The notes under the pieces were generated by a model that did no database searches, was not told where the DNA came from, and worked only from the letters and a program-made list of their open reading frames with translations. The translations under genes and the position numbers were made by a program. Positions 32,949-59,553 of a DNA stretch of 64,000 nt are shown one piece after another. Source of the stretch: Myxococcota bacterium. Lineage in GTDB: Bacteria; Myxococcota_A; UBA9160; JAFDDA01. The DNA is taken from contig OZ245817.1 of assembly GCA_965228475.1 (NCBI GenBank), positions 4,800,001 to 4,864,000 of the forward strand, read 5' to 3'. Every line of letters begins with the position of its first letter. Position 1 is the stretch's first letter.

Positions 32949-33808
32949 TGACGACCCTGCCTTTCACCAAGATGCACGGCGCCGGGAACGACTTCGTCGT
33001 GCTCGACGCGCTGGCCCACGAGATCCCGCCCCTCGAGCGGCTCGCGGAGCGGATCGCGGACCGCCACTTCGGAATCGGCTGCGACCAGATCCTCGTGATC
33101 CGCCCCTCGGAGATCGCGGACTTCCGCATGGACATCTACGACGCCGACGGCTCGCGCGTGGAGATGTGCGGCAACGGCATCCGCGCCCTGCTCAAGTACG
33201 TGCGCGACCGCGGCCACACCCAGGCCGAGGAAGTCGGCGTCGAAACCCTCGGCGGCGTCGTGCGCCCCCGCTGGATCCGCCGCGAAGCCGACGGCTCGGA
33301 CTGCGTGCGCGTCGACATGGGCCGGCCCGTGCTCGTGCCCGAGAAGATCCCCACCCGGCTCGGGAGCGGCGAGGGCCCCGTCCTCGACGCACCCCTCGAC
33401 GTCGAGGGCGAGCGCGTCACGGTCTCCTGCGTTTCGATGGGCAACCCGCACGCGGTCCTCTACGTCGACGACCCGGACACCGCGCCCGTCGAGACCCTCG
33501 GCCCGCGCATCGAGAACCATCCGGCCTTCCCGAACCGGACGAACGTCGAGTTCGTGACCGTCGTCGCCCGCGACCGCATCCGCCAGCGCACGTTCGAGCG
33601 CGGAACCGGCGAGACCCTCGCCTGCGGCAGCGGCGCCTGCGCCGTGGCGGTGGCCTCGATCCTGCGCGGGGTGGCCGACCCGGAGCTGACCGTCGAGCTG
33701 CGCGGCGGCGCGCTCGAGCTCGCCTGGGCCGGCGGTGACGCCTCCGTCTTCATGACGGGCCCCGCCGCCGAGGTCTTCACCGGCACCTTCCCGCTGGAGG
33801 AAGTCTGA
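32948..33808 (+). CDS. dapF: Diaminopimelate epimerase
   Basis: KMHGAGNDF, EMCGNG, SMGNPH, ERGTGETLACGSG. Confidence 0.96.
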   Translation: MTTLPFTKMHGAGNDFVVLDALAHEIPPLERLAERIADRHFGIGCDQILVIRPSEIADFRMDIYDADGSRVEMCGNGIRALLKYVRDRGHTQAEEVGVETLGGVVRPRWIRREADGSDCVRVDMGRPVLVPEKIPTRLGSGEGPVLDAPLDVEGERVTVSCVSMGNPHAVLYVDDPDTAPVETLGPRIENHPAFPNRTNVEFVTVVARDRIRQRTFERGTGETLACGSGACAVAVASILRGVADPELTVELRGGALELAWAGGDASVFMTGPAAEVFTGTFPLEEV

Positions 33809-34680
33809 TGTTCGAGGGTGTCCACACTGCACTGGTGACCCCGTTCCGGAATGACGCCGTCGACGAGGCGGCCCTGCGGCAGCTCGTCGAGCGCCAGGTC
33901 GAGGCCGGCGTCGACGGGATCGTGCCCTGCGGCAGCACGGGCGAGTCCGCCACGCTCTCCCACGCCGAGCACCGGCGCGTGGTCGAGGTCGTGGTGGAGG
34001 CCGCGCGCGGCCGCGTCCAGGTGATTGCGGGCACGGGCTCGAACAACACCAAGGAGGCGATCGCCCTCACCCGGCACGCGAAGGAGGCCGGCGCGGACGG
34101 CGCGCTCCTGATCTCGCCCTACTACAACAAGCCGACCCAGCGCGGAGTCGTCGAGCACTTCGCGGAGATCGCACGCCAGTCGGCGTTCCCGCTGGTCGTC
34201 TACAACATCCCGGGGCGCACGGCCTCGAACCTGCTGCCCGAGACCCTCGCCGAGCTCTCGACGATCGAGCAGATCGTCGGCGTGAAGGAAGCGTGCGGGG
34301 ACATCCACCAGATCTCCCAGGCCGTGATCGCCTGCGCCGAGGGCTTCACGTTCCTGGCGGGCGACGACGCCATGACCCTGCCGCTGCTCGCCGTCGGCGG
34401 GCACGGCGTCATCACCACCGTGGGCAACCTCGTCCCGGCCGAGATGGTCGAGCTCGTGCGCAGCTTCAAGAGCGGCGACGTCGCCCAGGCCCAGCGCCTC
34501 CACCAACGCCTGCTGCCGCTGATCGACGCCGTCTTCTGCGAAACGAACCCGATCCCGATCAAGGCGGCCGTCGCGCTCCAGGGCCTGGTGTCGGACGAGA
34601 TCCGGCTTCCGCTCACGCCGATCGCGGACGAGAACCGCGAACGGCTGCGCCTGGTCATGAAGGAGTTCGGCCTCCTGTGA
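33808..34680 (+). CDS. dapA: 4-hydroxy-tetrahydrodipicolinate synthase
   Basis: ALVTPF, GSTGES, PYYNKP, YNIPGRT, GVKEA, ETNPIPIK. Confidence 0.96.
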   Translation: MFEGVHTALVTPFRNDAVDEAALRQLVERQVEAGVDGIVPCGSTGESATLSHAEHRRVVEVVVEAARGRVQVIAGTGSNNTKEAIALTRHAKEAGADGALLISPYYNKPTQRGVVEHFAEIARQSAFPLVVYNIPGRTASNLLPETLAELSTIEQIVGVKEACGDIHQISQAVIACAEGFTFLAGDDAMTLPLLAVGGHGVITTVGNLVPAEMVELVRSFKSGDVAQAQRLHQRLLPLIDAVFCETNPIPIKAAVALQGLVSDEIRLPLTPIADENRERLRLVMKEFGLL

Positions 34681-48091: not shown

Positions 48092-48552
<461 letters not shown>

Positions 48553-49202: not shown

Positions 49203-50585
49203 CTAGAAGGCGTAGATGGCTTCGACGCCGACGAGGACCTGGTCGTCGCCACGCGTGGCGGCGGATCCGCCGGCGGCGCGGCGGCGGCCGGTGTCGTTGT
49301 CGAAGAACACGTCGTCCGAGTTGTCGTGGATGTCCGAGACGTCGTAGCGGACTTCACCCTTGATGGTGAGCGCTTCGGTCAGCGCGAAGTCCGTCGTGAG
49401 CGTCACGGTGTGGATCTGGCACTCGGTCTCGATCTCGGAGGCCGGCTGGGCCGCCGGGTTCGAGCAGCCGAAAGCACGGCCATCGTCATCCACGAAGTCG
49501 TACCGCAGGGCCGTTCCCAGGCGCTCCGTCCACGCGTAGCGCGAGGCGAGCGAGATGCCCCAGGCGTTCGGGTCGTTGCGGAACGCGTCGTCGTCGCGCA
49601 GCAGCAGGTCCGCGTTCATCAGGAACGCCAGCCGGTCCGTGATGTCCCAGCTCACGACGAGGTCGAGGATCGTCGTGGTCGGCTGGTCGTCGAAGGCCGT
49701 GTCGTTCGCGTGCAAGGCAGCGAACGAAGCGGACCAGCTCTCGGCCGTGTAGCCGAGCTTCCCGATGAAGCCGACGCCGTCCGTGCTCGAGGGCTGCGGC
49801 GTCGCGAAGACGAAGTCGTTGATGACGCCGACCGAGAGGTCGAAGCCGCCGCCGAGATCCGCCGAGGCGAGCACGCCGACGTGGTCGATCGGCTGCAGCA
49901 GGTTGTAGACGTTGCTCCGGGTGATGTTCCAGTTGTAGGGAGCCTGCGCGACCTCCGCGCCGATCAGCGTCCCGAACTTGCCCATCTTGAAGTTGACGTC
50001 GTGGCCGCCGAAGTCCGCGAGGTACTCGACGTACGCGCTGTTCAGGTAGAGGCTGTTGCCGCCGATGTCGACGCCGACACCGCCCGAGCCGTTGCCGCCG
50101 GGCAGGAGCGCGGCCGTCCGGCCGAAGGCGATCTCCGCGAAGAAGCCCGCGCGGTCTTCCACCGTCGCCGGCTTGCCGATCTCGAACCACAGCTGGTCGA
50201 AGGCGAAGTTGTTGTCGTCCGGCTTGAAGGGCACGCAGCAGCCGTTGCCGCTGTTGCCGCCGACGAGATCCCGCGTGTCGAGATCGTTCAGGTTGTGGAA
50301 GTAGCTGACGGAAACCCAGCCGGCCATTTCGAGCTTCTCGAAGAAGCTCGAGATCCCGGACGAGGAATCCCCGAGGCGCACGTCCTCGATCCCGGCCCGG
50401 TCGATCACCGTCCGCTGCTGCTCGATCTCGCTGGACTGGGCCTTCACCGTGTCCTGCAGCTGGAGGATCATGTTCCGCATCTCGTTCATCTCTTGGCGGA
50501 GGGTCTCGTCTTCCGCCAAGGCGACTCCCGGCAGCATGGCGGCGGTCGCCAGTGCCAGAAGCGCGTCGGTCCATCGAATTCGCAT
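49203..50585 (-). CDS. Outer-membrane beta-barrel porin (BBP2-like), copy 1
   Basis: Signal peptide, coiled-coil N-terminus, GKFGTLIGAEV, NWNITRS, C-terminal beta-signal VEAIYAF; GAGGAG RBS. Confidence 0.8.
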   Translation of the reverse strand: MRIRWTDALLALATAAMLPGVALAEDETLRQEMNEMRNMILQLQDTVKAQSSEIEQQRTVIDRAGIEDVRLGDSSSGISSFFEKLEMAGWVSVSYFHNLNDLDTRDLVGGNSGNGCCVPFKPDDNNFAFDQLWFEIGKPATVEDRAGFFAEIAFGRTAALLPGGNGSGGVGVDIGGNSLYLNSAYVEYLADFGGHDVNFKMGKFGTLIGAEVAQAPYNWNITRSNVYNLLQPIDHVGVLASADLGGGFDLSVGVINDFVFATPQPSSTDGVGFIGKLGYTAESWSASFAALHANDTAFDDQPTTTILDLVVSWDITDRLAFLMNADLLLRDDDAFRNDPNAWGISLASRYAWTERLGTALRYDFVDDDGRAFGCSNPAAQPASEIETECQIHTVTLTTDFALTEALTIKGEVRYDVSDIHDNSDDVFFDNDTGRRRAAGGSAATRGDDQVLVGVEAIYAF

Positions 50586-50635
50586 GTTCGGGGTTCTCCT
50601 CACCCGGTAGGGAATCGTTCCAAGCGCGGGACAAG

Positions 50636-50651
50636 AGCAATGCCCATGCCA
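50636..50651 (-). promoter_or_regulatory. Sigma-54 promoter of porin 1
   Basis: Minus strand TGGCATGGGCATTGCT. Confidence 0.88.
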
Positions 50652-50723
50652 TCGCGTTCTGCGCAATTCGATACCCAACTGTGCGAGAAACCGCCCGAAA
50701 ACCGACCCGGACGGGTCGGCGGC

Positions 50724-50760
50724 TGCCCAACTCGAGGGCATGCTGCCCAAGCCCTGGGCA
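50724..50760. promoter_or_regulatory. Tandem NtrC-type 17-bp boxes
   Basis: TGCCCAACTCGAGGGCA (50724-50740) and TGCCCAAGCCCTGGGCA (50744-50760), 20 bp centre to centre. Confidence 0.75.
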
Positions 50761-50801
50761 AGAAAGAAAGAGGGGCGCGGTGCCGCTGCACCGCGCCCCT
50801 C
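50760..50801 (-). terminator. Rho-independent terminator of porin 2
   Basis: GAGGGGCGCGGTGC-N4-GCACCGCGCCCCTC (50770-50801) followed by TTTCTTTCTT on the minus strand. Confidence 0.85.
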
Positions 50802-50839
50802 CGGGACCGCTTGGCGCGCCAGGCGCGCCGGCTGGTTCG

Positions 50840-52375
50840 CTAGAACTCGTAGATCACGTCCACGCCGGCCACGAACTGATCCGAGTCGCCGCCCCGGACG
50901 TTGCCGGTCGCTTCGCTCGTGCGCTCGTTGAAGATCGAGTCCGTGCAGGCGCGAGCGTTGGCCGGACCGCCGGCCCTGCGGCAGAACCGCTCGTAGTCGT
51001 CCCAGCGGATCTCGCCGCGCACCTTGATCTGATCGGAGAGCTGGTAGTGCAGCGTGCCGGTGATCGAGAGCGCTTCTTCGTCGAAGCCCGCGCTGCGGCG
51101 CAGGACCACGCCGGCGGGCAGGCCCGTAACGAGCGGACCGGTCGGTGCGGCGAAGGCGCCGAAGGTCGGCGAGAAGCCCGTACCGCTCGGGTTCTCGACC
51201 TGGGCGAAGTCCACGCGCAGGGTGGCGCCGATGCGCTCGTTGATCGTGTAGTGGCCGCCGACGGAGATGCCCCAGCCATCCGGGTCCGCGCCGTCGGGGT
51301 TGCGCCACTCGCGGTCGAAGTTCATCCACAGGTTGAGATCCGTGAAGGGATCCCAGGTGAAGATCACGTCGAGCACCGTGCGCTTGTCGCTCTCGCTGCC
51401 CGCGAACTCCGGACCCGTGATGCCCGCCACCGCGATCGACCAGTTCTCACCGGTCATGCGGATGCGGCCGGTGTAGGTCTTGTCGTGGTTGATGTCCGGG
51501 TCGTCCGGAGCGAAGCCGTTCACCACGCCGAGGTCGAGATCGATCACGCCCTCGCTGCCGAGGAAGTGGAAGCGGCGGTCGACCGTCTTCGACATCAGGA
51601 AGCCCAGGTGATCGACGGGCTGGAACGTCGCCCACAGGATGCTGCGGGAGATGTTGTAGTTGTAGGGCGCCTGCGCGACCTCGTAGCCGAGGAGCGTGGC
51701 GACCTTGCCGAGGGTCAGCTTCACGTCGCCGATCTTCGGGGCGTCCCACAGGTACTGGATGTTCGCCTGGTGGACGTAGATGTCGTCGTCCGAGTCGCCG
51801 CTGGCGAAGTTGCCCGAGAGCAGGTCCGCGACCTTGCCGAGCACGATGTCGGCGCGGAAGCCGGAGCGCTGCTCGGGGCTGACGGGCCGCTCGAGCTCGA
51901 ACCAGAGCTGATCGAACGAGAAGCCCTGGGCGTCCGGGTTGAGCGGGTTGAAGGCGCCGCCGCCGGCGAGGCCGCAGGTCGCGCCCGAAGCCGTCGCGCC
52001 GTTGCCGGTGTTGGCGTTGTTCGACGCCGACGCGCCGGCGCAGGCCTCGCCGTTGCCCGGCTGGTTGAAGTTGTGCCAGTAGCTGATGTTGACCCAGCCA
52101 CCGATCTCGAGGGACTGGAGGAAGGAGTCGATGCCCGAGGCGCCGTCGTCGTCGACCTTCAAGCCCGCGTTCGACATGACCTGCTTCTGCTGATTCACCT
52201 GGTCGGTGGCCGCCTCGAGCTGATCCGTCGTGTTCGTGAGCTTGTCTTCGAGCAGCATCAGACGCTCTTGCATCTGCCGAAGCTGCTCCTGAACCTGGGC
52301 GTCGTCGGCCGACGCAAGCTGCGGGGCAACGACGAATGCCGTGGCCACCAAGAGGCTGATCCAGCCGGAGCGCAT
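50840..52375 (-). CDS. Outer-membrane beta-barrel porin (BBP2-like), copy 2
   Basis: Paralogous to copy 1 (FDQLWFE, EVAQAPYNYNISRS); C-terminal VDVIYEF. Confidence 0.8.
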   Translation of the reverse strand: MRSGWISLLVATAFVVAPQLASADDAQVQEQLRQMQERLMLLEDKLTNTTDQLEAATDQVNQQKQVMSNAGLKVDDDGASGIDSFLQSLEIGGWVNISYWHNFNQPGNGEACAGASASNNANTGNGATASGATCGLAGGGAFNPLNPDAQGFSFDQLWFELERPVSPEQRSGFRADIVLGKVADLLSGNFASGDSDDDIYVHQANIQYLWDAPKIGDVKLTLGKVATLLGYEVAQAPYNYNISRSILWATFQPVDHLGFLMSKTVDRRFHFLGSEGVIDLDLGVVNGFAPDDPDINHDKTYTGRIRMTGENWSIAVAGITGPEFAGSESDKRTVLDVIFTWDPFTDLNLWMNFDREWRNPDGADPDGWGISVGGHYTINERIGATLRVDFAQVENPSGTGFSPTFGAFAAPTGPLVTGLPAGVVLRRSAGFDEEALSITGTLHYQLSDQIKVRGEIRWDDYERFCRRAGGPANARACTDSIFNERTSEATGNVRGGDSDQFVAGVDVIYEF

Positions 52376-55340: not shown

Positions 55341-55416
55341 TGGTGGAGCCGAGCGGGATCGAACCGCCAACCTCCGCGTTGCGAACGCGGCGCTCTCCCA
55401 ATTGAGCTACGGCCCC
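55341..55416 (-). tRNA. tRNA-Ala (anticodon CGC)
   Basis: GGGGCCGTAGCTCAATTGGGAGAGCGCCGCGTTCGCAACGCGGAGGTTGGCGGTTCGATCCCGCTCGGCTCCACCA: cloverleaf, G3:U70, encoded CCA. Confidence 0.97.
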
Positions 55417-55460
55417 GGAGACCGGACCCCCGCCCGGAGGGCGGAGAGGTCGGAGCCGGG

Positions 55461-55553: not shown

Positions 55554-56009
55554 ATGAGCGTACAAATCGGAACCATCCTGGCCCCTCTCGACTTCTCCGA
55601 CCATGCCGACGGCATCCTCGACTGGGCGGTCCACCTCGCCAAGGCGCACGGAAGCCGCCTCGTCCTGATGCACGCCTACCACCTGCCCGTCGAGTTCCAG
55701 CAGATGGAGGGCGCCTACCTCCCCGCCGAGTTCTGGACCCAGGTGAAGAGCGAGGCCGAGAAGACCCTCGAAGGCCATGCGGCCCGGCTCCGCGGCGAAG
55801 GCATCGAGGTGGTCGTGAAGGTGGTCGAGGGCTACCCGGCCACCGCGATCGAGGACACCGCCAAGGGCGAGAACGCGGACCTCATCGTGATCGGAACCCA
55901 CGGCCACACCGGTCTGAAGCACCTCCTGCTCGGCAGCGTCGCGGAGCGCGTCGTCCAGAAGGCGCCCTGCCCGGTGCTGACGGTGAAGACGGGCGACGTC
56001 GACGACTGA
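55554..56009 (+). CDS. Universal stress protein (UspA family)
   Basis: ILAPLDFS, DLIVIGTHGHTG, LLGSVAERVV..APCPVL. Confidence 0.93.
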   Translation: MSVQIGTILAPLDFSDHADGILDWAVHLAKAHGSRLVLMHAYHLPVEFQQMEGAYLPAEFWTQVKSEAEKTLEGHAARLRGEGIEVVVKVVEGYPATAIEDTAKGENADLIVIGTHGHTGLKHLLLGSVAERVVQKAPCPVLTVKTGDVDD

Positions 56010-56038
56010 GTTCCCCAGGTTCGCGGTAGGATGGACGG

Positions 56039-56692
56039 ATGGTGAAGAAGCCCGAAGGCGGGGAGAGCCCGCGCGCGGTGCGCAAGCCGCAGCAGGCGCG
56101 CAGCCGGCGCACGCGGGAGCGCGTGCTCGTGGCCGCCGTCGCCTGCTTCGAAGAGGCCGGCTACGACAAGACCACCACCGCGGCCATCGCGCGCCGGGCC
56201 GGCATCGCCGTCGGCACGCTCTACGGCTACTTCCGCGACAAGCGCAGCATCCTGCTCGAGCTGATCGATCGCACGATCAAGGAGAACGTCGACTACGTCG
56301 CGAAGGAGCTCGAGCCCGAGGCCTGGGTCGGGACCGACCCCCACGAGAACACGCGCGCCCTGATCGACGCCGTCTTCCACACGCGCAGCCTCAACCCGGG
56401 CATGCAGCGCATCCTGTGGGAGCGCTTCTTCAAGGATCCGGAGGTGCGCGCCGCGATGGAGGAGCTCGAGGGGCGCGTGCAGGGCGCGCTCGCGGAGCTG
56501 CTCGCGCACCTGAAGGCGAGCGGCCAGCTCCGCATCGACGACGTCGAGACGGCGGCGCGCGTGATCAGCCTCTCGGTCGAGTGGATGGCGAACCGGCTGC
56601 TGCTCGGGGGCGACGAGCTCCAGACCGACTCCGCCGTCGCCGCCACGGCGGACATGATCTCGCGGTTCCTTTTCGAAGACCGTCCGGCGTAG
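56039..56692 (+). CDS. TetR/AcrR family regulator
   Basis: GYDKTTTAAIARRAGIAVGTLYGYFRDK. Confidence 0.93.
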   Translation: MVKKPEGGESPRAVRKPQQARSRRTRERVLVAAVACFEEAGYDKTTTAAIARRAGIAVGTLYGYFRDKRSILLELIDRTIKENVDYVAKELEPEAWVGTDPHENTRALIDAVFHTRSLNPGMQRILWERFFKDPEVRAAMEELEGRVQGALAELLAHLKASGQLRIDDVETAARVISLSVEWMANRLLLGGDELQTDSAVAATADMISRFLFEDRPA

Positions 56693-56699
56693 AGCCCGA

Positions 56700-58358
56700 C
56701 TACTCCGAATCCTTGCGCAGCCGCGCGCCGAGGCTTCCGCCCGGGTGACGGGCGGCGTAGTCCGCGGCGGTGAAGTCGCGGGCATCCTCGAGGGCGGCGG
56801 AGAGCGCCGCCATCACCAGCACCTCGGCGGCGACGCTCGCGCGCGGCGCGAGACCGAGCCCGCCCCCCTCGCGCGAGACGCCGGCGAACAGGAACACGTC
56901 GGCGTTCCGCCCGAGCCAGGAGGCTTCGTTGCCGGAGATGCCGATCACGCGCACGCCGAGCCGCTGAACGGTCTCGACGGCGCCGCGCAGCTCCGCCGTG
57001 TCGCCGCTGTTGCTGATCGCGATGACGACGTCGCCCGCCGCCACCTGGCCGGCGCTGCCGTGGGTCGCCTCGGTGCCGTGCAGGAACGTCGCGGGCGTGC
57101 CCGTCGAGGCGAGCAGCGAAGCGCCGTAGCGCGCGACGTGCTCGGGCTTGCCGATGCCGGTGACGTGGACGCGGCGCTCCTTCTCCTCCGCGCCGCGAAC
57201 GAGCGCCGTCGCCGCGTCGAAGGCCGCCGGTTCGAGGCGCGCGCGCAGCGCCACGACCTCTTCGAGCATCACGTCCAGGGTCGCGAAGGCCTCCGCGGCC
57301 GCGCGGCCGATCTCGGCGGCGCGGGGTGCCGGGGCGAGCTCGAGCGGCGCGCCCTCGTAGAGTTGGAGCACCCGGTCACGGGCGGCGGCGGGGTCCTCGG
57401 GGAAGGCCCCGAGGCGTTCGCAGCAGGCCGCACCGCAGGCGTTCGCCAGGGCGCCGGCGTCGCGCCAGCCGAGCCCGGCATCGAGCGCCGCGAGGAGACC
57501 GCCGAGGAACGCGTCCCCGGCGCCGGTCGTGTCGACGACGTCGACGCGCGACGCCGCGAGGGTCTCCTCGAACCCGTCCGCGCAGATCGCGCAGCCGCGC
57601 TCTCCGTCCGTCACCACGACCGCGCGGCTGCCGAAGCGATCGCGCGCGGCGCGGGCGAGGGCGAGAGCCTCGCTCCCGGCCTCGGGGAAGAGCTCCGCGA
57701 GCGCGGACTTCGAAGGCTTCAGCACGTCCGCCGCGCGGAGCACGGCATCGAGCGCCTCGGCGCTGCCGAGCGCGGGCACGGCGGCGCTCGGCGGGAGATC
57801 GAGATCGAGCACGCTCGGCACGTCCGCCTCGCGCGCGATGGCGAGCACTTCGGCGACGGCAGCGAGCGGGAGCTGGGAGACCTCGGTCGTCACCCGGCGC
57901 GCGCGGCGGATGAACGCCTCGTGGTGGCTTCGAACGTGCTCGGCCGTGGTCTCGGCCGTCGCGCCGGGCGCCATGTAGATCGCGCGGCCGCCCTCGGCAT
58001 CGACGAAGATCTCGGCGGTCGAACTCGCCGAGCCGTCGAGCACGAGGTCGTGCTCGATCCCCGCGCGGTCCATCGCCGCACGCAGGGTCCGACCGACCGC
58101 GTCTTCCGCCTGCTTGCCGAAGATCCCGGTGCGCAGCCCGAGCGCCGCCGCCCAGCCGAGGTGGTTGAGCACGACGCCGCCGATCTTCTCGGAGACCGGC
58201 GCGCCGTCGTCGAGCGGAAGCACGCTCGCCTTCTCGTCCGGCCCGAGCACCCGCTCGACCCGGTGCATGCGGTCGAGGACCATGCTGCCGATCCCGGCGA
58301 CGGCGAGCGGGCCCGGGCGTCCGCCCTGCGCGTTCGTTCGGCGGGGCGCCTCGCTCAT
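56700..58358 (-). CDS. Fusion of a PfkB-family sugar kinase and a KdsD/GutQ-type SIS sugar-phosphate isomerase
   Basis: PfkB: IGGVVLN, VTDGERG, DTTGAGDAF. SIS: VTGIGK, EATHG, ISNSGDT, GLAPRAS, HPGGSLG. No CBS domains. Confidence 0.85.
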   Translation of the reverse strand: MSEAPRRTNAQGGRPGPLAVAGIGSMVLDRMHRVERVLGPDEKASVLPLDDGAPVSEKIGGVVLNHLGWAAALGLRTGIFGKQAEDAVGRTLRAAMDRAGIEHDLVLDGSASSTAEIFVDAEGGRAIYMAPGATAETTAEHVRSHHEAFIRRARRVTTEVSQLPLAAVAEVLAIAREADVPSVLDLDLPPSAAVPALGSAEALDAVLRAADVLKPSKSALAELFPEAGSEALALARAARDRFGSRAVVVTDGERGCAICADGFEETLAASRVDVVDTTGAGDAFLGGLLAALDAGLGWRDAGALANACGAACCERLGAFPEDPAAARDRVLQLYEGAPLELAPAPRAAEIGRAAAEAFATLDVMLEEVVALRARLEPAAFDAATALVRGAEEKERRVHVTGIGKPEHVARYGASLLASTGTPATFLHGTEATHGSAGQVAAGDVVIAISNSGDTAELRGAVETVQRLGVRVIGISGNEASWLGRNADVFLFAGVSREGGGLGLAPRASVAAEVLVMAALSAALEDARDFTAADYAARHPGGSLGARLRKDSE

Positions 58359-59443
58359 GCGGCGGGCGTGCGCCACGGCGCCTGCAGGCGCTCGCTGGCG
58401 AGGGAGCGGACTTCCTCGAAGACCTCGTCGAAGCGCTCCGCGTCGGGCCGCGCGAGCGCGGGGGTTCCCGGCGCGACGGCGTCGCTCGTGGTCACGCCGA
58501 GGGTCACGAGCGCGCGCTTCAGGCAGGCGATGGTGCGGCGGCCGCTCGCGGCCCGCGTGCCGACGCGGAAGCGGTCCACGACCTCGCGCACGGCGTCCAT
58601 GCGCTCGACGTCGCCGGCCCGGCAGACCTGCCAGGCGTGCGCCCACTCCCGGGGCAGCACGTTCGCCGGCCCGGCCACGACGCCGACCGGCATCTCGCCG
58701 CGCAGGCGGTAGCGCACCCAGCGTTCCATCACGCGGCCGAGCGGCCCGCCGCGGGGCCGGAAGATCTCGAAGATCAGCATCGCGTTCCCGACGTAGATCC
58801 CGAACTCGCCCCGGTCCCGGAAGTTCCGGGCGGCCTTCGTGTAGTTGCCGAGCACCTTGCGCGCGGCGGAGACCTTGATCCCGCGCACGAAGTCGAGCCG
58901 CGACATCTCCTTCACCTGACGCGTGCGGATGTGGGGCACGCGCGCGTCGATGGCGATGTCGGCGTTGTCGTAGAGGTAGACGGGGATGCGGCGCGGGGCG
59001 GCATCGAGCCGGTCCGCGATGTCGCGGCGCAGGAACTCGACCGGGTCGCGCACGTCGACGATGGAGAGCGGGGCAAGCACCGCGGCGTCGGCGCCGCAGG
59101 CGATGGCGAACTCGAGGTTCTCGAGGGTCTCGCTGCGCGTCGGGGTCGTGATCCCGGCCCAGGATTCGACCTTGCGCTCGCCGTCGGCCGAGAGCTGCGC
59201 GTTCACCTTGGCCACCTCTTCCGAGCAGACCTGGATCACGCCCTGGCGCACGTCGTTTCCGAGCTGATCCCACTCACCGGTCGTCCCGGCGGAGAAGACG
59301 ACGTCGGCGCCTCGCCCGTCCTGGACGACGTGGCGCACGAGCGCGCGCTGATCCGCCTCGATCAGCGCGCCCGACTCGTCCACCACCGTGACGACGGGAA
59401 CCGAGAGCCCGGGCCTCGGCCGAATGTCCTCGAGCGTCCTCAA
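58355..59443 (-). CDS. DHDPS/N-acetylneuraminate-lyase-family aldolase (divergent)
   Basis: VPVVT, GTTGE, YLYDN, Schiff-base Lys in GIKVS. Confidence 0.8.
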   Translation of the reverse strand: MRTLEDIRPRPGLSVPVVTVVDESGALIEADQRALVRHVVQDGRGADVVFSAGTTGEWDQLGNDVRQGVIQVCSEEVAKVNAQLSADGERKVESWAGITTPTRSETLENLEFAIACGADAAVLAPLSIVDVRDPVEFLRRDIADRLDAAPRRIPVYLYDNADIAIDARVPHIRTRQVKEMSRLDFVRGIKVSAARKVLGNYTKAARNFRDRGEFGIYVGNAMLIFEIFRPRGGPLGRVMERWVRYRLRGEMPVGVVAGPANVLPREWAHAWQVCRAGDVERMDAVREVVDRFRVGTRAASGRRTIACLKRALVTLGVTTSDAVAPGTPALARPDAERFDEVFEEVRSLASERLQAPWRTPAA

Positions 59444-59553
59444 GCGAGAAAGTCCTCCAGACCTGATGACCGCGATCTCGCGACCGCAAATGAGCCTAGT
59501 GACTCACCCGGCGGCGGGCCACGCCGGGAGGCAGGGAAGCCCGCTCCGCGGCG

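Follow-up and report, generated by a model that had tools for sequence, protein, structure and literature searches.

Organization of the aldolase and kinase-isomerase genes

The window analysed here is a 64,000-nucleotide stretch of a Myxococcota genome (contig OZ245817.1, positions 4,800,001 to 4,864,000), the minus strand of which carries an aldolase gene followed by a gene that joins a PfkB-type kinase to a SIS domain. The aldolase gene (58355-59443) was predicted to encode 362 aa from a TTG start, and a Shine-Dalgarno-like GGAGG (59454..59458, minus strand) was seen 10 nt before that start. As the first-pass annotation of this DNA had stated, the aldolase stop and the start of the fusion gene (56700-58358, minus strand; 552 aa) share an ATGA at 58355-58358, an overlap that may couple translation of the two genes. 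The fusion itself was also recovered, PfkB being detected at residues 52-318 and SIS at residues 393-512; the kinase domain, of the PfkB/ribokinase fold, spans residues ~18-340 (57339..58358, minus strand) with the catalytic D282 in DTTGAGD, and the SIS domain, KdsD-like and CBS-less, spans residues ~352-550 (56700..57308, minus strand). Aldolase and CBS-less SIS together likely constitute a housekeeping module substituting for KdsD, the isomerase that interconverts ribulose-5-phosphate (Ru5P) and arabinose-5-phosphate (A5P), the latter being used for synthesis of 3-deoxy-D-manno-octulosonate (Kdo).

Predicted activities of the three domains

The SIS domain scored 134.1 bits against TIGR00393, below the cut-off of 203.7, and a Pfam profile search gave no match to a CBS domain in the fusion protein. 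Alignment to 2xhz, the SIS domain of E. coli KdsD, and to 5uqi placed K404, E430, H433, E497 and H538 at the positions of KdsD K59, E85, H88, E152 and H193 in 67/67 sequences, and E456 at that of E111 in at least 90% of those aligned; these six KdsD residues are what we take to be its catalytic set. The hallmarks GIGKPE, EATHGS, LAPR and HPGG were present as described earlier, the last reading mostly HPAG among relatives. In a tree of A5P isomerases (APIs) the SIS sequences formed one clade (SH-aLRT 88, unstarred) with the signatures P405, S435, Q438 and R506. Compared with KdsD, S60 is changed to P, D90 to S and T161 to R throughout the clade, and with S435 in 64/67 and R506 in 67/67 sequences the HGD and APT/S substrate-loop residues are not matched. 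GKP is not decisive for the clade, as the canonical KdsD of one genome (G001) has GKPG.

The best solved relative of the SIS domain was 5uqi, a single-domain isomerase (E 1.6e-31), with 2xhz and 3etn also near; 5uqi is presumably E. coli CFT073 c3406, and 3etn presumably the Bacteroides fragilis API. The window SIS resembles these single-domain APIs in having one SIS, no CBS and an HPGG/HHGG end, but differs in that they retain HGDLG and a T or S at the R506 position. A single-domain API is reportedly also found in Clostridium tetani, and we know of no aldolase partner for enzymes of this type. With KdsD/KpsF/GutQ the domain shares the SIS fold and the equivalents of all six residues, and judged by exclusion it fills their genomic role; unlike them it lacks the CBS pair, falls below the TIGR00393 cut-off, belongs to its own clade with GK[PS]E, HGS..Q and PR.S, is fused within that clade to kinase or aldolase, and does not adjoin kdsA. 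Because a look-alike, 3fxa, is a Listeria glucose-6-phosphate isomerase, the SIS fold need not mean an API. Taken together, the retained residues make API activity (Ru5P/A5P) of the window SIS probable. KdsD is described as SIS plus two CBS domains in the accessible part of PMC10448790, an API equilibrium that favours A5P in that of PMC11591822, and complementation of an E. coli API mutant by the B. fragilis API in an excerpt of PMC11301363.

The kinase domain scored 135.4 bits against PF00294 (cut-off 25.8), with D282 of the GAGD motif in 67/67 sequences, and 105.6 bits against the RbsK model TIGR02152, well below the cut-off of 299.65. It has the lidded PfkB fold of ribokinase (E. coli RbsK, Thermus 6znx) and the sulfofructose kinase YihV, with TM-scores to the target of 0.85-0.88. 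When ribokinase numbering was transferred, by inference, through the Thermus enzyme, four of the seven residues of the ribokinase set (N14, D16, G42, K43, N46, E143, D255) were found to be kept, D16, G42, N46 and D255 being invariant, whereas N14 is replaced by V27 or A27, K43 by V, E143 by Q and NxxE by KP[SA]K; the DxD is as in YihV. In ribokinase, N14 binds ribose, not arabinose, and A98 disfavours arabinose, according to the portion of PMC9604405 available; the A98 equivalent is retained as A115. D-arabinose could be the kinase substrate, with a chance put slightly short of even.

The kinase is a separable, accessory part of the module. Synteny showed it deleted in place, with the aldolase abutting the SIS, in three genomes of the window's own class (G011, G087, G125), and it was lacking in 24/32 SIS-bearing Blastocatellia. 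Among Blastocatellia, kdsC is missing from seven of the nine that bear the kinase and present in all 24 SIS carriers that do not. A role as KdsC replacement was considered but is no more than a lead, seven kdsC-less genomes having no kinase and the kinase-less own-class G011, G063, G087 and G125 also being kdsC-less.

The aldolase matched PF00701 weakly (32 bits) in a profile search, and its AlphaFold model (pLDDT 89.9) has the barrel fold of dihydrodipicolinate synthase (DHDPS) and N-acetylneuraminate lyase (NAL), which bears out its earlier description as a divergent member of that family. A separate canonical dapA, likewise pointed out before, lies at 33808-34680 and exceeds the TIGR00674 cut-off (351.8 bits). 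By comparison the aldolase reached 20.2 bits against TIGR00674 (DapA; cut-off 206) and 15.2 bits against TIGR00683 (NanA; cut-off 382), and it fell far below every NCBIfam cut-off. The nearest structure was 5c54 (TM-score 0.73-0.75; identity ~20%), with 4xky (Z 34.8) and 5c54 (Z 34.5) tied as neighbours of the model. The superfamily marks are present as the TIM barrel, GTTGE at 53-57, Y158 and K190; among 73 free-standing aldolases G56 and E57 are found in 73/73, Y158 in 72/73 and K190 in 71/73. An Arg/Trp-rich helical insert at residues 228-250 is specific to the subfamily, and G219-[ND]-A221 stands where GxDE, the sugar-binding block of NAL (in the part of PMC4016182 at hand), would be expected. 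The protein thus shares the barrel, GxxGE, the tyrosine and the Schiff-base lysine with the NAL/2-keto-3-deoxygluconate (KDG) aldolase branch (C. glutamicum NAL 5c54, 4xky, YagE 2v8z) but is only ~20% identical to it and differs by GNA for GxDE, by family-specific inserts and by SIS-fused members that lack the lysine. Read from its sequence, it is a subfamily of its own among predicted DHDPS/NAL-fold Schiff-base aldolases.

Kdo aldolase, EC 4.1.2.23, is a class defined by its activity, the cleavage of Kdo into D-arabinose and pyruvate; literature searches found no reference sequence for it. The activity is cited from 1966 and 1990 papers in the accessible part of PMC12199768, and NAL enzymes form Kdo from pyruvate and D-arabinose at ~1% relative activity, as given in a portion of PMC4016182.

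Distribution of the module and of KdsD

The window's genome carries kdsA (over the cut-off), kdsB and waaA, and its five SIS matches were GlmS twice, the fusion SIS and two proteins whose sequences read as MurQ-like and GmhA-like. Thus the cell appears to make Kdo with the fusion SIS as its sole KdsD-like candidate, which answers the first-pass suggestion to look for kdsA and kdsD elsewhere. In a profile search over 151 genomes of the window's own class, kdsC was not found in the window's genome. The run pyrG-lptC-lptA-lptB-rpoN, labelled from sequence (G000:C1:1918207-1924280), is without kdsA, kdsD and kdsC; kdsA-kdsD-kdsC usually lie in this run. A six-frame motif scan of the genome gave tkt, tal, rpe, rpiA and rpiB-like genes and no zwf or gnd signature, and the pentose phosphate pathway's oxidative arm may be lacking.

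Among the 151 own-class genomes, the aldolase was present in 120, the SIS clade in 121 and both in 118; in the two genomes with the aldolase alone, it sits where a contig stops. Canonical KdsD was found in four (G001, G031, G099, G106), none of which has the aldolase or the SIS clade. Synteny showed an unbroken btuD-eno-hyp-kinase locus in G099 and G106, which keeps the kinase but has neither the aldolase nor the SIS; in G059, also by synteny, both are gone and KdsD was not found either. Neither system was present in 24 genomes, 14 with kdsA and 10 without. The aldolase also followed Kdo synthesis, being absent in 11/16 kdsA-less genomes vs 20/135 that bear kdsA. Five genomes that are 90-97% complete (G003, G041, G043, G084, G085) have no aldolase and no kdsA or waaA that could be found, and two genera of the class may have lost Kdo-type lipopolysaccharide (LPS).

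The same exclusion was seen in a second phylum. In 81 Blastocatellia genomes, the class of G151, KdsD was present in 39 and the aldolase in 40, with an overlap of 0 and neither in two. The SIS clade was found in 32/81, 31 of which also carry the aldolase, unlinked; the kinase (at least 50% identity) was found in 9/81, kdsA in 75/81 and kdsC in 67/81. A KdsA tree built for 64 of the 81 implied at least two switches between the KdsD and aldolase states. A sample of 161 Acidobacteriota genomes had KdsD in 152 (including the three unpublished genomes G369, G281 and G257), the aldolase in three, as judged on the best 12 or fewer candidates per genome, and both in none.

These data support what the first-pass annotation had offered as a side option, a supply of A5P for Kdo synthesis, through both the exclusion of KdsD and the absence of the module where kdsA and waaA are absent. 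Its link to Kdo and A5P was upheld by the distribution, and its catabolic headline fits poorly, because there is no reason for catabolism to avoid KdsD.

Aldolase and SIS do not follow the absence of KdsD equally: among the 42 Blastocatellia without KdsD, the aldolase is present in 40 and the SIS in 32. This difference, and the adjacency of the aldolase to a transketolase-like gene in 8/15 loci, would suit a reading in which A5P is a Schiff-base product of the aldolase-fold protein itself, formed by isomerising or epimerising a pentose phosphate or by an aldol step of another kind, with the SIS serving an adjacent reaction or a different sugar. We regard this as very improbable, for the carboxylate-binding GxxGE is kept and points to a 2-keto acid substrate, the aldolase decays in fusions while the SIS stays intact, and 14 own-class genomes have kdsA with neither aldolase nor SIS. 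In those eight Acidobacteriota loci (L077, L079, L080, L082-L085, L088) the aldolase is divergent from the transketolase-like gene, a label from sequence, and a small cupin-like gene mostly lies between the two; shared ancestry of these loci is possible.

The distribution of kdsC and kdsA raised another alternative, in which the aldolase is a second, phosphoenolpyruvate (PEP)-independent Kdo or Kdo-8-phosphate (Kdo-8P) synthase, using pyruvate and D-arabinose or A5P and making KdsC, and in places KdsA, dispensable. kdsC was found in only 6/151 own-class genomes and not in the other 145, the window's included; all 14 kdsC-less and all six kdsA-less Blastocatellia carry the aldolase, 5/5 of the kdsA-less ones tested retain kdsB and waaA, and the aldolase persists without the SIS. 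Nevertheless, kdsA was found in 135/151 own-class genomes and in 115 of the 120 that carry the aldolase, the apparent loss of kdsA in G222 is a contig break and the other kdsA-less Blastocatellia are draft genomes; replacement of KdsA by the aldolase was rejected on these grounds. The four KdsD-bearing own-class genomes are also kdsC-less, the exclusion of KdsD is left unexplained, and an aldol equilibrium generally favours cleavage at cellular concentrations. A synthase role was accordingly rated as having a small chance.

Linkage, fusions and the catabolic alternative

From metagenomes, 80 loci were kept of 498 found. The kinase directly follows the aldolase in 73 of them, the other seven having less than 300 nt of contig left, and the SIS is present in 41/41 with room for it. 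The linkage of aldolase and kinase is far above chance, and the genes, which the first-pass annotation had expected to be linked in other genomes, are so. The best 120 relatives (aldolase at least 62% and fusion at least 68% identical) come, where named, from Myxococcota, Deltaproteobacteria or Proteobacteria metagenome-assembled genomes. In genome loci the fusion was found 73 times with the aldolase adjacent in 19; in the loci titled Blastocatellia the aldolase does not adjoin the fusion but is carried elsewhere in the same genomes. The fusion had also been called unusual; within its lineage it is not rare but the class norm. A profile search of 1.84 billion representatives further recovered aldolase-kinase-SIS fusions (P0262, P0296) and aldolase-SIS fusions (P0279, P0281).

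The first-pass annotation had favoured a route by which Kdo from LPS is broken down via free arabinose and enters the pentose phosphate pathway, that is, Kdo to pyruvate and D-arabinose, then A5P and Ru5P, as a carbon source. On this reading loss of kdsD would be a by-product of the reversible isomerase. The three activities are chemically coherent in that order, triple fusions exist, an uncloned Kdo aldolase activity is on record (cited in part of PMC12199768), and the kinase has no counterpart of the ribokinase Asn, which binds ribose but not arabinose (PMC9604405, in part). The kinase that this route needs is, however, dispensable, being absent from 24/32 SIS-bearing Blastocatellia and lost by in-place deletion in several genomes of the own class. 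No conserved linked transporter or regulator, as in a nan-like operon, was found among the neighbour clusters. Where kdsA and waaA are absent, so is the aldolase, and the joint exit of aldolase and SIS in the KdsD-bearing G099 and G106 would go unexplained. Catabolism of foreign Kdo was for these reasons considered quite unlikely.

In sialic-acid catabolism the nan genes are accompanied by transporter and regulator genes and occur together with the biosynthetic pathway. The window module shares with NanA-NanK-NanE the logic of aldolase, kinase and isomerase/epimerase for a ulosonic acid, but differs in having no conserved transporter, in its optional kinase and in its exclusion of KdsD. Its neighbours change by lineage, with eno, a FecCD-type ABC transporter, dnaK, a MobA-like gene and other unrelated genes adjoining it. 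The TetR gene at 56039-56692, convergent on the fusion, was rejected as a regulator of the module, TetR genes adjoining only 10/80 loci.

Proposed role of the module

The reading that we hold, with about even confidence, is that the SIS domain makes A5P for the cell's own Kdo, that the aldolase recycles Kdo-8P or Kdo, and that the kinase is accessory. The SIS would convert Ru5P to A5P and so feed the cell's own KdsA, the aldolase would cleave surplus Kdo-8P or Kdo to pyruvate and A5P or D-arabinose as a recycling or overflow step, and the kinase would re-phosphorylate free arabinose. A biosynthetic direction of the module was judged fairly probable. Kdo-8P or Kdo is by a little the favoured candidate substrate of the aldolase, because Kdo-8P (or Kdo, giving arabinose) is the one 2-keto-3-deoxy acid tied to A5P. 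A recycling or overflow enzyme is suggested by the 2-keto-acid Schiff-base site, by its travel with the SIS, by its loss together with Kdo synthesis and by the weak Kdo activity of NAL. A phosphorylated aldolase substrate would account for the optional kinase. APIs are subject to feedback by CMP-Kdo, for which the literature searches found no confirming paper, and overflow through the aldolase in place of CBS-linked control is a tentative and somewhat doubtful proposal.

Several observations count against this reading. The loop formed by KdsA and the aldolase would waste PEP. The changes D90 to S and T161 to R lie near the SIS active site and may indicate another substrate. The independent switches number roughly 4 to 7 over all trees and families, kin not being independent. 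Fourteen own-class genomes have kdsA with neither KdsD, the SIS clade nor the aldolase (G013, G021, G051, G052, G059, G065, G070, G079, G101, G108, G112, G117, G128, G133); waaA was present in 4/4 of those tested, and G128 is one contig. A5P can therefore come from elsewhere, and the exclusion is possibly in part history. In nine Blastocatellia the aldolase was found but neither SIS nor KdsD gave a match. Conversely, the SIS occurs without the aldolase in four genomes (G080, G085 and G145 of the own class, and G216), and G085 retains the fusion without kdsA or waaA. The aldolase-only, SIS-only and neither-system genomes indicate other sources of A5P and an aldolase function independent of the SIS. 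A PF01380 search of five SIS-less genomes (four Blastocatellia and G128) for a hidden isomerase gave no other API-like protein, only GlmS, NagB-II-like double SIS and weak matches that by length look like MurQ and GmhA. Of the SIS-less Blastocatellia, G173 shows no more than a fragment of the kinase close to where a contig stops, and the genes of G206 lie on a 9.5 Mb contig. The aldolase in these SIS-less Blastocatellia is conserved to the same degree as elsewhere (94% of 116 conserved columns). Finally, a small TalC/FSA-like gene of the window's genome (G000:C1:1769064-1769801; TIGR00875 178.9 bits, under the cut-off), which has no CBS tail and sits among ATP-grasp and glycosylation-type genes, is a possible other source of A5P.

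The SIS-fused aldolases P0279, P0281 and P0296 count on the same side, as their aldolase domains lack the lysine, the tyrosine and GxxGE, so that catalysis is not needed there; this hints at a second, non-catalytic role. P0312 belongs with them to a set of Lys-less aldolase domains fused to SIS and/or kinase. By the tree the lysine was lost at least twice among SIS-fused members, which retain the basic and aromatic surface motifs RxxTR..K.L.R, Y.K.AR.[FY]..R.EFG and W.R, and some free paralogues show the reverse, retaining the lysine and losing the motifs. Such a pattern would be expected if the barrel served chiefly to bind the SIS, replacing the lost CBS pair as a membrane anchor, a scaffold or a sensor of Kdo or Kdo-8P. 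Free-standing members nevertheless keep K190 (71/73) and Y158 (72/73), and the Lys-less fused proteins are singletons from metagenome assemblies. The decay of surface motifs expected without a SIS was not seen when 8 SIS-less genomes were compared with 18 others, and the insert as a membrane anchor was set aside, its helix having an amphipathicity of 0.44 vs 0.20-0.60 for ordinary barrel helices. A role mainly in binding thus appeared improbable.

Even so, known folds are joined in a new partnership, conserved and uncharacterised, that appears to displace KdsD in two phyla. Given that KdsD is near-universal in Kdo-making Acidobacteriota (152/161), a different two-part replacement in two unrelated phyla is notable and points to an undescribed supply or regulation of an essential LPS precursor; it also gives a concrete candidate gene for the Kdo aldolase activity cited from 1966. 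Further gaps are a class that makes Kdo without a recognised kdsC and at least 14 kdsA genomes without a recognisable isomerase. The broadest claim would be that the aldolase is the orphan Kdo(-8P) aldolase and, with the remodelled CBS-less SIS, an alternative entry to Kdo biosynthesis class-wide and in half of the Blastocatellia. On this view it would take over the CBS pair's control of the isomerase and could also form Kdo from pyruvate, needing neither PEP nor KdsC and, in a few genomes, not even KdsA; as a whole this is unlikely. No literature on the module, the fusion or the exclusion of KdsD was found in searches whose coverage took in few subscription papers.

Other copies and neighbouring genes

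In Latescibacterota (L064-L066, L073; G155) one chromosome has, at three places, the kinase followed by a SIS interrupted by stops or frameshifts; assembly errors or decay may be the cause. A second, broken aldolase-kinase copy lies at G115:C12:110315-112183, with an intact copy elsewhere in that genome. Scavenging of D-arabinan was considered and rejected, a gene that we would label DUF2961/GH172-like, with no NCBIfam match, following the fusion in only 2/73 loci (L009:7680-8783, L020:7889-8998); a 44% homologue of it lies elsewhere in the window's genome (G000:C1:4188751-4189830). GH127 genes were seen upstream in 10 loci and SGNH genes in 20.

Within the window, a probable tRNA-Ala-like stretch lies at ~55380-55460, and a universal stress protein gene accompanies the TetR gene within 55554-56692. 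By reading of their open reading frames, two tandem paralogous secreted proteins encoded upstream of a glnB/glnK-like gene (49203-52375 and 48092-48493, both minus strand) look like outer-membrane porins.

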